A stretch of DNA of 63,690 nt, counting the filler, from Octopus bimaculoides (Eukaryota): the NCBI RefSeq assembly GCF_001194135.2. It is 4 parts of 4 records of this genome, joined end to end, with 100 filler letters (N's around TTAATTAATTAA, not from the genome) between each part and the next. Parts side by side here need not be neighbours in the genome. Positions count along the whole stretch, not along the records: positions 1 to 9,918 come from NC_068994.1; positions 10,019 to 37,793 come from NC_068987.1; positions 37,894 to 61,313 come from NC_068985.1; positions 61,414 to 63,690 come from NC_068995.1. One strand, 5' to 3'. Position 1 is the stretch's first letter; every line of letters starts with the position of its first letter. The translations under genes and the position numbers were made by a program. A model generated the notes under the pieces. The model saw only the letters and a program-made list of their open reading frames with translations, was not told where the DNA came from and did no database searches. Of the stretch, positions 8,469 to 62,167 are shown piece after piece.

Positions 8469-8504
8469 TTTCGACTGATATACCCTCCAGCTTTCATCAG
8501 GTGT
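8469..8504 (-). ncRNA. Truncated hammerhead motif in the left arm (stem III and cleavage site deleted)
   Basis: Minus strand reads ACAC-CTGATGA-AAGCTG-GAGGGTATAT-CAGTC-GAAA, then a 19-nt deletion relative to the right arm. Confidence 0.6.
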
Positions 8505-8725
8505 CTTAGGAAAATTTCGAACCTGGGTTCTCATTCCTAAGGTATTTTTCGATGTTATTACTGTTATTATTATTCAGGTCACTGCCTGGAATAGAACTCA
8601 GATTCCAGGTACTGACCTTAATAATAATAATAATAATAATAATAATAATAATAATAATAATAATAATAATAATAATATCGAAAAATACCTTAGGAATAAG
8701 AACCCAAGTTCGAAATTTCCCCAAG

Positions 8726-8769
8726 ACACCTGAAGAAGGCTGGAGGGTATATCAGCCGAAATGTTATGT
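8726..8769 (+). ncRNA. Degenerate minimal type-I hammerhead ribozyme
   Basis: ACAC-CTGAAGA-A-GGCTG(loop 10)CAGCC-GAAA-TG-TT-ATGT. Stem II is a perfect 5 bp. Stems I and III carry substitutions relative to an ideal GAAA-CG-TT-GTGT. Confidence 0.7.
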
Positions 8770-9689
8770 TAACAACAAACAAGATGAGGACAAATATCCG
8801 TCAAATGTAAATAATGTAAATAATGTACATAATTCCTCATCTCTTAAATATAGAACTGTAAATTCAGAAGTGTTTTCGTTTGTAAGTGTTCATATGCGTT
8901 GTGTATGAGTTGTACTCCATGATCTAGCACTCTCTCTCTCTCTCTCTCTCTCTCTCTCTCTCTCTCTCTCCGTTATATATAAATACGCTAAAATGCGTGA
9001 CCAACCTGTTTCCGAACGAGAGGTCAAATTATTGGAGCGCATATGGCTGGAGCTTCAGTCACTAAAACTGCTGAATCGTTTAATGCTGCCAGAGGTACAG
9101 TCTCGAAAATCGTGTGGTTAGTCCGAAGCTATGGCGAAACCAGTTCAGCTCTAGCAAGCATAACTTTGAACGGAAGGTAAAAGTCACATAGAGGAGACCG
9201 AAGAATAAGGAAACGTATTACATTAAAAAAATAAAAAGAAAGAAACTCACCGAACTACGACAGCAAAAGCCACAGCAGAACTAGACCATCATCTTGCCAA
9301 ACCTATGTCAACCAAAGCCGTTTGTCGAGAGCGCCATAAAGCATCATTTGTCGCTGATAGTGACGCAGTCTTCCACAACGATAATGCGCAGATTCACATA
9401 GCTAGTGTTATTCAAAATTAATACGTGGGGCACAAACGTGGAGCAGACCAAGTGGACTGGCCCCCACAGTCACCAAATCATAATATACTCGAAAATTTAT
9501 GGTGCAATATGGGGCAGTAAAATCCAACGAACAACCTTAAAAACAATTGGATTTTACTCACAAGGTATTGGAATCTTATATGTATACCATTCTGCCTAAA
9601 CATTGGATTTACAAATACAATATCCCTACATTCACTCTCTATCTCCTATCTTAACTAAACCAACTATTGCTTAATCATCCTCTCACACC

Positions 9690-9737
9690 GTCTCCGATGA
9701 AGGGATATAATAAATATCCTGGAAACAGCTGTAAGAC
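9690..9737 (+). ncRNA. Minimal type-I hammerhead ribozyme, CCGAUGA core variant
   Basis: GTCT-CCGATGA-AGGGATAT(AATAA)ATATCCTG-GAAA-CAGCTG-TA-AGAC. Stem I is 4 bp, stem III is palindromic, the cleavage triplet is GUA, and there is an A.G mismatch at the base of stem II. Confidence 0.8.
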
Positions 9738-10289
9738 CTTCTATCTATAAATGTTCATATATATACTGTTGTGTCTGGGGAGAGTCATTTTCATTTCGCG
9801 CCTTATAATTTAAGACTATTGAAAAGGTTGCAAGACGCAACGAAAATTTTAGGAAAATAAAAATAAGGAATAAGTGGAAATTTTACCGGTGAATGTGTTA
9901 AATTATAAGGCACAATAANNNNNNNNNNNNNNNNNNNNNNNNNNNNNNNNNNNNNNNNNNNNTTAATTAATTAANNNNNNNNNNNNNNNNNNNNNNNNNN
10001 NNNNNNNNNNNNNNNNNNATATATATATATATATATATATATATATATATACCATCTCCAACGCAGAGACTACCTGTTCGCGTGATTTCGACCTTCCTTG
10101 ATCTTGTCAATGATGGGCGCTCAACAGCTAATAAGGAGACTAATTCAGGACATATTTGATCATCTTTGACTTCTTTTCCGTATTTGCCAAATTAGTAAAA
10201 GGAGAAATAATATATTGGTACAATATGATATTGATAATATCTAAAAGAAGACACGTTTTCGTTCACTTTTGGTGAAAGTAGCATTGACC

Positions 10290-10670
10290 ATGATGTATTA
10301 ATGTCATCAGATGGTACCCAACGATTATCGGGTGTTTCGAACCTGACCCGTCACACCTTCCCGTTGATGATCAACGATGGTAGACAAATCACTGTTCATC
10401 GTCTATTCCTGTTTTCCAACTTAACTCCTCTCTCTAGTCTCGTAACGAGCAAGAGGCTCTTTCTTCTCCCTCCCTATCCTGCGCATCCTTTCGCTTTTTT
10501 TCTTTTTATTCCATTGGTTATAAGCATTCTATATACTGACAGGGCAGAAAATACTTTGCAGCCAGCCTCGACTGGGAATAGCCATTACTGCCATCATTTC
10601 TCCCTGCAATCTTGCATCTTGTTAGGTAGACCCCCAAACTTTAGTTTAATCACCGAGGAAAATAATTCAC
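10290..10670 (-). mobile_element. 3' end of a HERO/NeSL-like RLE non-LTR retrotransposon
   Basis: Minus-strand translation DCREK*WQ*WLFPVEAGCKVFSALSVYRML...RASC resembles the RLE C-terminal signature PVEVGCRGF...ASCWLW, and is followed by a 3' UTR. Confidence 0.7.
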
Positions 10671-59109: not shown

Positions 59110-59220
59110 TCGACCACAGTGCTCAACTGGTACTTATTTTATCGACCTCGAAAAGATGAAAGTCAAAGACGACTCCCGCGGAATTTGAACTAAGCGGTCT
59201 TTCGCCCGCCGTTCTAAGAG
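59110..59220 (-). mobile_element. Family B SINE fragment
   Basis: CTGGTACTTATTTTATCGACCTCGAAAAGATGAAAGTCAAAG...GCGGAATTTGAAC. Confidence 0.7.
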
Positions 59221-59323
59221 GACAGGAACATACGATCTGCTGTTGGATTTCATTCCTGAGAAACAACCCTAGTAACGTAGGAGATGGTGCTTGGCAGTTC
59301 AAGCGCTCCGGTGACATAGCGAA

Positions 59324-59368
59324 CTCTGACACACCGGTGTTTCAGTATAATTGAGCCTCCTCAGACAG
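59324..59368 (-). ncRNA. Degenerate hammerhead fold
   Basis: Minus strand reads CTGT-CTGAGGA-GGCTCAATTATACT-GAAA-CAC(CGGT)GTG-TC-AGAG. The core is intact but stem II is weak. Confidence 0.45.
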
Positions 59369-61783
59369 AAATACTACCGAGAACTTTGAAACTAAAGCGG
59401 AATGGTTACAAATGACTCCTAACAGGTATAGTGGAAAATAATAAATAGATATCATAAATTCAATTTATAAGCGTGAGTATTGATGACGATAATATTGATT
59501 ATAGATTATAATGTTGATTATAAATATTGCTTATATGAAATAATAAGCTGTACTACTTCGAGTGAAGTATTTCGTAAAAATTTCACAGATGCAATACGTA
59601 AGGAAAATTCTAGTAACTGTGATTCACAATAATGAAATATTGAACATCACCTCTGGAACAGAAATAATACAAAAAGAAATACAAACGTTGTCAAATATAT
59701 CAATCTAATAAACCAATATTAAATAAGTTAGGATCTTGATTCCTTAGGTACTACCGGGTGTTGCTTGCAGTACATACAAATTTGTCTCTCTGTTTGTCTG
59801 TCTCTATCTATCTATCTAACTATCTATCTGTCTGTCTGTCTTTCTGTCTATCTGTCTGTCTGTCTGTCTTTTCTCTGTCTGTCTATCTATCTATCTATCT
59901 ATCTATCTATATGTACAAATATAATACACACACAAGCATATAACCACACATATATATATATATACGTGTGTGTGTGTGCGTGTGTGTGTGTGTGCGCGCA
60001 TATGTGTGTGTGTGTTTTGGGTGGGGTTGATCAATTGCACATATCTACATACTTGTTTAAACATATACATACATACATACATATATATATATATATATGA
60101 ATTGATACGCACGCACACATGGATCGATAGATACATGTACAAATACAAACACATGATGCACATACACACACACACACACACACACACACACACATACATA
60201 TATNNNNNNNNNNNNNNNNNNNNNNNNNNNNNNNNNNNNNNNNNNNNNNNNNNNNNNNNNNNNNNNNNNNNNNNNNNNNNNNNNNNNNNNNNNNNNNNNN
60301 NNNNNNNNNNNNNNNNNNNNNNNNNNNNNNNNNNNNNNNNNNNNNNNNNNNNNNNNNNNNNNNNNNNNNNNNNNNNNNNNNNNNNNNNNNNNNNNNNNNN
60401 NNNNNNNNNNNNNNNNNNNNNNNNNNNNNNNNNNNNNNNNNNNNNNNNNNNNNNNNNNNNNNNNNNNNNNNNNNNNNNNNNNNNNNNNNNNNNNNNNNNN
60501 NNNNNNNNNNNNNNNNNNNNNNNNNNNNNNNNNNNNNNNNNNNNNNNNNNNNNNNNNNNNNNNNNNNNNNNNNNNNNNNNNNNNNNNNNNNNNNNNNNNN
60601 NNNNNNNNNNNNNNNNNNNNNNNNNNNNNNNNNNNNNNNNNNNNNNNNNNNNNNNNNNNNNNNNNNNNNNNNNNNNNNNNNNNNNNNNNNNNNNNNNNNN
60701 NNNNNNNNNNNNNNNNNNNNNNNNNNNNNNNNNNNNNNNNNNNNNNNNNNNNNNNNNNNNNNNNNNNNNNNNNNNNNNNNNNNNNNNNNNNNNNNNNNNN
60801 NNNNNNNNNNNNNNNNNNNNNNNNNNNNNNNNNNNNNNNNNNNNNNNNNNNNNNNATATATATATATATATATATATATATATATATATATACATACCTA
60901 TATAGATATTCATACACAAGTATATGTTACAAATACATTCTCTCCACACGCACAGATATATATATATTCATAGGCATCTGTATATATATATGTGTGTGTG
61001 TGTAGGTATATATCTTTATATACATATCTATATATAATACATCGTGTATGGACAAACAAATATGTATGTACATGCGTATACACACGTCTATATTTACCCC
61101 CGTGTATATAAAACTACGACTACATGCACAGACGCTCTCACATATATTCACCTAGTGTTTATATTATAATCATGGTTATTAATTTAGAAGACACACACTC
61201 ACAAACATACACGCAGACACATACATATATACATGCATACACATATACTTACATACATAATTATAGGTACACATATATATATATATATATATATATATAT
61301 ATATATATATATANNNNNNNNNNNNNNNNNNNNNNNNNNNNNNNNNNNNNNNNNNNNTTAATTAATTAANNNNNNNNNNNNNNNNNNNNNNNNNNNNNNN
61401 NNNNNNNNNNNNNTATGTAAACACAGACTTATCTGCACACATATGCTGACGTATAAATCACATCATACATACATACAACATACATACATATCTATCTATC
61501 TATCTATCTATCTATCTATCTATCTATCTACATTCATTCAGACATATGTCGATCAAGTATGACCATGTTTTGTGTTTGTTTTACTATCGGTTAAACGAAA
61601 GAAAGAAAACGGTTTTTACTCATCTTGCAATGACAGAGATATTCAATAGTTTGGTAGAACCAAACAAACTCCTACTGCACACCTATATTACCTCAATGGA
61701 TAATGTCACGTGGCCGATCATAGGCACTCAACTGTTTCCCACGCTTACGTTTTGGTTTTTGTTGCACGTACCTTTCCTTTAAC

Positions 61784-61930
61784 AGACGTTCCGTCGGTTA
61801 CGACCTGGAGGAGTTCCAGTCGATCCGATCAACAGCACAGTCTGCTCATGAGATTAATGTGAAATTGGCTGGCTAAGTACTTCACAGACACGCGTACTCT
61901 TGACGTAGACCTCAAGGAGATTCAGCACAG
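61784..61930 (-). mobile_element. Family C SINE tail fragment
   Basis: CCGTCGGTTACGACC...GATCCGATCAACAGCACAG...ACAGACACGCGTACTCTTGACGTAG. Confidence 0.7.
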
Positions 61931-62120
61931 AGGTCACTCCCGTTTACCATTACCAACACGGTCACTACTACTACTACTACTACTACTACTACTACTACTA
62001 CTACTACTACTACTACTACTACTACTACTACTACAGCCAACGATTCAAGTCAACGCACTAGACAGCCATTATAATTACAATTATGAACTTTTCTTTTAGT
62101 TACAATTTTAAAAAAATATG

Positions 62121-62167
62121 TATTTTTGATAAGGTTCGTTTTTTCAAGAACCGAAACATGTAAAATA
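62121..62167 (+). ncRNA. Hammerhead fold with perfect stems and a degenerate core
   Basis: TATTT-TTGATAA-GGTTC(10 nt)GAACC-GAAA-CATG-TA-AAATA. The core differs from CTGATGA at positions 3 and 8. Confidence 0.6.

Follow-up and report, generated by a model that had tools for sequence, protein, structure and literature searches.

How did some ten hammerhead-like motifs come to be scattered over so short a stretch of the octopus genome, and are they still ribozymes? The stretch that we analyzed, here called the window, comprises 63,690 nucleotides (nt) of Octopus bimaculoides DNA (NCBI RefSeq assembly GCF_001194135.2), drawn from four records whose parts are joined by filler at positions 9919-10018, 37794-37893 and 61314-61413 (each 44 N, 12 called bases and 44 N). 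It has 55,384 called bases and is about 9.5% perfect microsatellite. A preliminary description had listed ten minimal hammerhead ribozymes, and all ten sites are present at the positions and on the strands claimed. With one more, at 9819, the window contains eleven small type I minimal hammerhead (min-HHR) motifs, most of them damaged. It is likely, in our judgment, that these are remnants of the 3' ends, or pseudo-long terminal repeats (pLTRs), of several families of Penelope-like elements (PLEs), mostly inactive at their present sites.

The motifs as a set are not an accident of base composition. A type I hammerhead descriptor in three tiers recovers 3, 5 and 5 sites, of which 6 are distinct; 200 local dinucleotide shuffles give means of 0.055, 0.015 and 0.22 (maxima 1, 1 and 2), and the reversed window gives none. 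Shuffled sequence, the control that the preliminary description had proposed, therefore does not approach a similar density, with a mean of 0.015 set against five near-intact sites. Because this descriptor was drafted with the motifs already seen, a covariance model was trained on 22 motifs from PLE loci outside the window; its training rows were picked with the same descriptor, and its E-values are rough. The model matches four sites at E<0.1 (8724, E 8e-5; 62120, 0.004; 53922, 0.06; 9813, 0.07) and two more weakly (8460 at E 1.6 and 48042 at E 6.2). Pair counts in alignment A3 (93% paired; 0 of 500 shuffles) are circular, as its rows were selected by the pairing descriptor, and are not used as support.

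Rfam yielded no match at the gathering score and, over the whole window, no hammerhead among the 150 listed of 414 matches at E<=10, 149 of which are microRNA models on simple repeats; over 8420-9915, the seven matches at E<=10 belong to neither a hammerhead nor a tRNA family. Comparison of the window by blastn with 79 outside PLE loci likewise gave no hammerhead-family match. Chance resemblance in AT-rich repetitive DNA would account for the lack of an Rfam match and for the five of ten sites that fail on basic features, and a lone decayed site (32093 or 59324, for example) could indeed be accidental. For the set, such an origin is refuted by the shuffles, and the outside-model matches, as well as the majority letters described below, which complete the structure, also stand against it; single decayed sites excepted, we find it scarcely credible.

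Inspected site by site, the ten motifs are not ten ribozymes (Table 1). Five are broken (8469, 21243, 32093, 48037 and 59324), and 8726, 9690 and 53924 have small defects only. Intact save for a core variant are 50864 (U4C), 62121 (U3-A8) and 9819 (U3-A8), the last absent from the first list. None of the ten first-listed sites combines a canonical core with perfect stems, and the stem III palindrome is perfect in 8 of the 11, with two G-U pairs in 8726, a broken form in 32093 and none in 8469. While U3-A8 is a known variant of PLE min-HHRs (PMC4209133), U4C is reported to lower hammerhead activity considerably in vitro (PMC3088659).

Table 1. Hammerhead motifs and associated features of the window
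Feature	Position	Strand	Details
Truncated hammerhead 8469	8469..8506	-	Core, stem II and GAAA kept; stem III, H17 and 3' stem I deleted
min-HHR 8726	8724..8771	+	Mismatch at first pair of stem I; two G-U pairs in palindrome; predicted cut after 8765
min-HHR 9690	9688..9739	+	U4C core; 8-nt palindrome; stem II first pair mismatched
min-HHR 9819	9813..9855	+	U3-A8 core; 5-bp stem II; 4-nt palindrome; 3-bp stem I
Decayed min-HHR 21243	21241..21276	-	2-bp stem II; 6-nt palindrome; stem I first pair mismatched
Decayed motif 32093	32090..32154	+	Intact core and stem II; broken palindrome; stem I absent; H17=G
Decayed motif 48037	48035..48081	-	C3-A8 mismatch; 10-nt palindrome; stem I 5/6
Intact min-HHR 50864	50862..50914	+	U4C core; 5-bp stem II; 8-nt palindrome; 4-bp stem I
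min-HHR 53924	53922..53961	+	U4C core; extra A after A9; 4-nt palindrome; stem II first pair mismatched
Decayed motif 59324	59324..59370	-	Canonical core; 2-bp stem II; 10-nt palindrome; H17=G
Intact min-HHR 62121	62120..62168	+	U3-A8 core; 5-bp stem II; 6-nt palindrome; 6-bp stem I
PLE open reading frame (ORF)	21460..22846	-	5'-truncated, frameshifted; reverse transcriptase (RT), CX4CxxC linker, C-terminal GIY-YIG; microsatellites on both sides
Fold-back of two ~185-bp repeat copies	8426..8860	.	Head-to-head around (TAA)n tract
~30-nt piece 5' of (TAA)n	8572..8630	.	In both copies; 78% inverted match

The stems had also been described as unrelated. This stands, at null level, for most sites, including 48037 and 59324, which have just 13 nt in common and a score equal to the null maximum, but not for 8469 and 8726 (82% over 169 nt) or for 9690 and 50864 (85% over 59 nt). 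As there are two same-family pairs and the others are mutually unrelated at null level, the eleven motifs represent eight or nine families. The 9819 motif sits in a separate multi-copy repeat, which contains a 14-nt inverted repeat (9800-9813/9898-9911). The original assignment to minimal hammerheads of Penelope type, in several families, is supported.

The link to PLEs is most direct at 21243, which lies ~190 nt 3' of the PLE ORF. This ORF matches its homologue P0001 at E 2e-96 (tblastn), and P0001 contains Pfam RVT_1, with GIY-YIG below the curated cutoff (20.4 versus 22.6 bits). Eight homologues were found, the closest named relatives being three named Octopus proteins at 63-67% identity. 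Tblastn with the eight PLE proteins revealed no other such ORF in the window, confirming that only 21243 adjoins one. A mussel protein, P0004, which is named Toll-like receptor 4, consists of PLE RT over its first 400 residues, joined to a TIR domain, and is probably an artifact of the gene model.

The arrangement recurs elsewhere. Among 79 metagenome loci with related RTs (50 after dereplication), a min-HHR occurs on the ORF strand in 34 and on the other strand in 3, or in 20 and 2 of the dereplicated loci. At locus L001, the motif is 167 nt behind the ORF match, resembling the arrangement at 21243, and at L009 and L018 it is present twice, in direct repeats of 265 and 523 bp that flank the ORF. 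The core heptamer of 9819 (U3-A8) recurs in the 523-bp repeats of L018. Separately, L016:100-144 (minus strand) has a min-HHR with the 8-nt stem III palindrome of the 9690/50864 family but a canonical core. PLEs have been reported as expanded in octopus (PMC13282606), in a paper whose main text does not contain the word "ribozyme."

Published work suggests how a PLE could leave such traces. The parent element would place two pLTR copies in tandem on one transcript, where they would pair via the palindromic stem III, and the paired hammerheads would cleave weakly after H17, probably aided by protein. Reverse transcription would begin near the 3' end of the element and usually halt early, so that most insertions would consist of a short end with one hammerhead, some with an inverted truncated copy in front. 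Inserted copies would decay neutrally, often at CpG, and each motif in the window would be the 3' end of a truncated insertion, by now mostly inert. Most genomic min-HHR copies are described as solo, dispersed in large numbers and probably truncated PLEs (PMC4209133). The preliminary description had instead taken most carriers to be non-autonomous, a view that is plausible only for the 8726 family.

Several points weigh against a PLE origin of the whole set. Within the window, a PLE ORF accompanies only 1 of the 11 motifs, and the parent elements of the other families were not found there. At E<=10, the covariance model misses five of the first ten sites (9690, 50864, 21243, 32093 and 59324), and, given their heavy decay, the proposed origin of 32093 and 59324 rests on resemblance. 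Finally, a B-box-like piece suggests that the 8726 family is more than a truncated pLTR, a question to which we now turn.

The 8726 motif belongs to a repeat of which the window holds two copies in a fold-back, 8426-8574 aligning with 8824-8656 (82% identity, blastn); ~36 nt are missing from the end of the inverted copy, and the whole folds into a single long hairpin (z -30.8). Mapping over 8690-9915 used a single DNA contig set together with three raw RNA runs from one study, with ~6% of each run read at 85% likeness, the RNA and DNA coming from different individuals and methods. By the DNA contigs, the 8726, 9690 and 9819 motifs each lie within a multi-copy repeat, with summed contig depths of 3-10 million, ~0.65 million and 0.7-1.5 million, respectively, and single listed contigs at 44-72. 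Since overlapping short contigs inflate depth, these sums are only a rough guide and not copy numbers; roughly, the 8726 family would have 10^4-10^5 copies and the others fewer. A 24-nt pattern of the 8726 family had no match in viral contig and genome contig collections.

Among the 40 of 104 difference rows listed for the mapped region, the family-majority letter accounts for 77% of DNA depth and ~60% of RNA reads at 8762 and for 95% and 76-79% at 8766. These letters close the 4-nt palindrome and stem I, so that the family form is an intact min-HHR, of which the window copy is a decayed version. Read ends place the 3' end of the unit in two classes ~40 nt apart, 8817-8827 and 8858-8860, with the inverted window copy stopping at the former and the forward copy at the latter. 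PLE insertions are known for a 30- to 40-bp one-sided tail and an inverted 5'-truncated copy (PMC8557442), and the ends and inversion of the 8726 family match both.

Whether this family is simply a PLE end is less certain. Tentatively, it might be a non-autonomous repeat resembling a short interspersed element (SINE), in which a (TAA)n spacer separates a tRNA-derived polymerase III head from a PLE-type hammerhead end, the latter allowing Penelope proteins to copy it. Both window copies have the ~30-nt piece 5' of (TAA)n, which in the minus copy includes a B-box-like 10-mer starting at 8597; the body is short, the 3' ends are sharp, and the summed depth is very high. This octopus repeat may have a tRNA-like head; ARAGORN found 0 tRNA genes. 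The copies are cut at the fold-back junction, with no A box or full head seen, the B-box pattern is permissive, was picked after sight of the sequence and has five matches in the window, and the mapping, which runs from 8690 onward, is blind to the 5' end of the unit. There is a precedent in schistosome elements that combine a polymerase III promoter with a hammerhead (PMC6765202). This reading of the 8726 family can coexist with truncated PLE ends as the source of the other families.

Do the motifs cut RNA where they now stand? RNA depth across the 8726 motif reaches thousands in the three runs, equally on both strands. However abundant, the signal need not come from this locus: 83-85% of mapped RNA reads continue into unlike sequence, and the non-repeat stretch 8895-9017 has zero RNA reads. 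From these features and the equal strands, we infer that the RNA derives from other copies of the repeat inside host transcripts. The cleavage-defined ends that the preliminary description had suggested seeking did not appear, as no pile-up of read starts or ends marks the predicted cut sites in the three runs over 8690-9915, and depth is flat over 8762-8766 (3372/3394, 2502/2495 and 2322/2338). Such a blank is weak evidence, since ordinary RNA-seq is likewise reported without such ends for the Anolis PLE ribozyme, which cuts in vitro with protein help (PMC11167929).

Geometry also speaks against the high density of potential self-cleavage sites that had been claimed. A partner is needed, as min-HHR monomers are reported not to cut in vitro and dimers to cut weakly (PMC4209133), and none is near on the same strand. 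The sole same-strand, same-family pair, 9690 and 50864, is 41,174 nt apart in window coordinates, and the neighboring motifs 8469 and 8726, which are antisense to each other, would be buried in a long duplex. Directly upstream of 9690, at 9510-9680, is another multi-copy, RNA-covered repeat, possibly part of the same element, although the 50864 copy has only 59 nt in common with the 9690 copy.

Alternatively, host transcripts could be cleaved in vivo by the intact copies, for instance, as trans dimers between abundant repeat RNAs. Three motifs are intact variants, and damaged variants make up a larger share of RNA than of DNA depth: at the 8726 cut site, a deletion of 3 nt accounts for 14-16% in RNA versus 1.2% of DNA depth, and a change of core G5 at 9696 makes up 39-59% versus 2%. 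Yet each skew resembles one highly expressed locus, as the 9696 change co-occurs with 9708 and 9711 at similar counts; a single unique flank behind 8817 has a read count about equal to that of the cut-site deletion. Together with the difference in individuals and methods, the flat depth and missing pile-up, the inert monomers and the lowered activity of U4C cores in the in vitro studies cited above, this makes cutting in vivo very unlikely.

Another source of dispersed hammerheads would be tandem non-LTR retrozymes, with the motifs being monomer offspring that cycled through small circular RNAs. Xenopus retrozyme monomers are described as evenly dispersed and derived from pLTRs (bioRxiv 2026.07.22.740005), and the ~185-bp unit falls within the 170- to 400-nt range of retrozymes (PMC7229834). 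However, no motif-bearing tandem unit was detected in the window by TRF or self-blastn, and no end-to-start joint appears among the 15 of 106 joints listed, in ordinary RNA-seq mapped without the first bases of the unit. Moreover, the retrozymes of PMC7229834 carry canonical hammerheads, the minimal type being assigned there to PLEs. We regard a retrozyme origin as unlikely and retain the truncated ends of PLEs as the likely source of the motifs.

The remainder of the window is repeat rich. A Pfam search of 214 of 245 stop-to-stop frames of >=58 aa (31 overlapping simple or SINE repeats were excluded by hand) disclosed no host gene, only RT and DDE/helix-turn-helix (HTH) transposon remains. 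An RT fragment of non-LTR type at 37164-37790 (plus strand; RVT_1, E 1e-7) is unmatched by the PLE proteins and looks R2/R4/Dong-like. Tc1/mariner-like transposase remains occur at 9001-9520 and 14828-15187 (plus strand), with weak HTH matches and DDE_3 at E 4e-10. The dominant dispersed repeat has >10 copies, including 2497-2807, 5831-6222, 28150-28600 and 45841-46165, and a second family is at 34036-34273, 36316-36484 and 54749-54989; both are probably tRNA-derived octopus SINEs. A palindrome of ~270 bp at 23171-23441 (85% overall, with perfect 48-nt arms at 23188-23235/23377-23424), beside (TA)n tracts, is possibly a fold-back remnant, each arm having a core-like heptamer and GAAAC and no stem II. 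Candidate motifs at 9103, 17471, 29378, 47050 and 23225/23387 were dropped for a missing stem I, a changed core or a missing stem II.

The min-HHR pattern published by Cervera and De la Pena in 2014 (PMC4209133) is here extended to an octopus genome, with most such motifs dead. At 3-5 near-intact motifs per 55 kb, a typical window would imply 1.5-2.5 x 10^5 per 2.8-Gb genome (size derived from PMC13282606), an estimate biased by the way in which this window was chosen. With descriptors that differ from ours, ~9,000 hammerheads were counted in Xenopus tropicalis and ~3,300 in Schistosoma mansoni (PMC4209133), and up to 120,000 retrozyme copies were counted in axolotl (PMC7229834). In the literature outside subscription journals, Repbase/Dfam and supplements, we found neither an octopus or cephalopod ribozyme survey nor a PLE-mobilized SINE. 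It is possible, though doubtful, that octopus genomes have 10^4-10^5 copies of a SINE-like repeat with a tRNA head and, at its other end, an intact Penelope-type hammerhead, and that Penelope proteins copy this repeat. Such a repeat would be a SINE parasitic on PLEs instead of on long interspersed elements, and it would help to place cephalopod DNA among the genomes richest in hammerhead motifs, at 10^5 or more per genome. It would also offer a compact natural substrate for learning what PLE proteins recognize and whether the hammerhead is needed, cleavage being reported as dispensable for PLE insertion in vitro (PMC11167929). Inverted pairs of such abundant repeats would, if transcribed, yield long double-stranded RNA.

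Comparison with known systems places the window closest to PLEs. The PLE min-HHRs of PMC4209133 share with it the type I order, a stem I of 3-6 bp, an extra nucleotide after A9 in some copies, a palindromic stem III, the U3-A8 variant, many families per genome that are mostly solo, and opposite-strand pairs 100-700 bp apart. The window differs in its cephalopod host, in palindromes of 8-10 nt at some sites, in three U4C copies and, if it is typical, in having 3-5 near-intact motifs per 55 kb, a local density well in excess of the 2,000-9,000 per genome of that study. Similarly, Neptune and Nematis, PLEs with a C-terminal endonuclease (PMC8557442), resemble the window ORF in having RT, a CX2-5CxxC linker and GIY-YIG, as well as microsatellite flanks, 5' truncation and a hammerhead behind the ORF, whereas the window copy is dead and its clade is assigned by features only. 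The Schistosoma elements SM-alpha and Sj-alpha (PMC6765202) are like the 8726 family only, as short high-copy repeats with a possible polymerase III head and a hammerhead, but that family has a minimal PLE-type hammerhead, a PLE-type tail and inversion, and a putative head. Metazoan non-LTR retrozymes (PMC7229834; bioRxiv 2026.07.22.740005) are, like the window motifs, short non-coding units with type I hammerheads derived from PLE pLTRs, while the window has minimal instead of canonical hammerheads and no tandem arrays.

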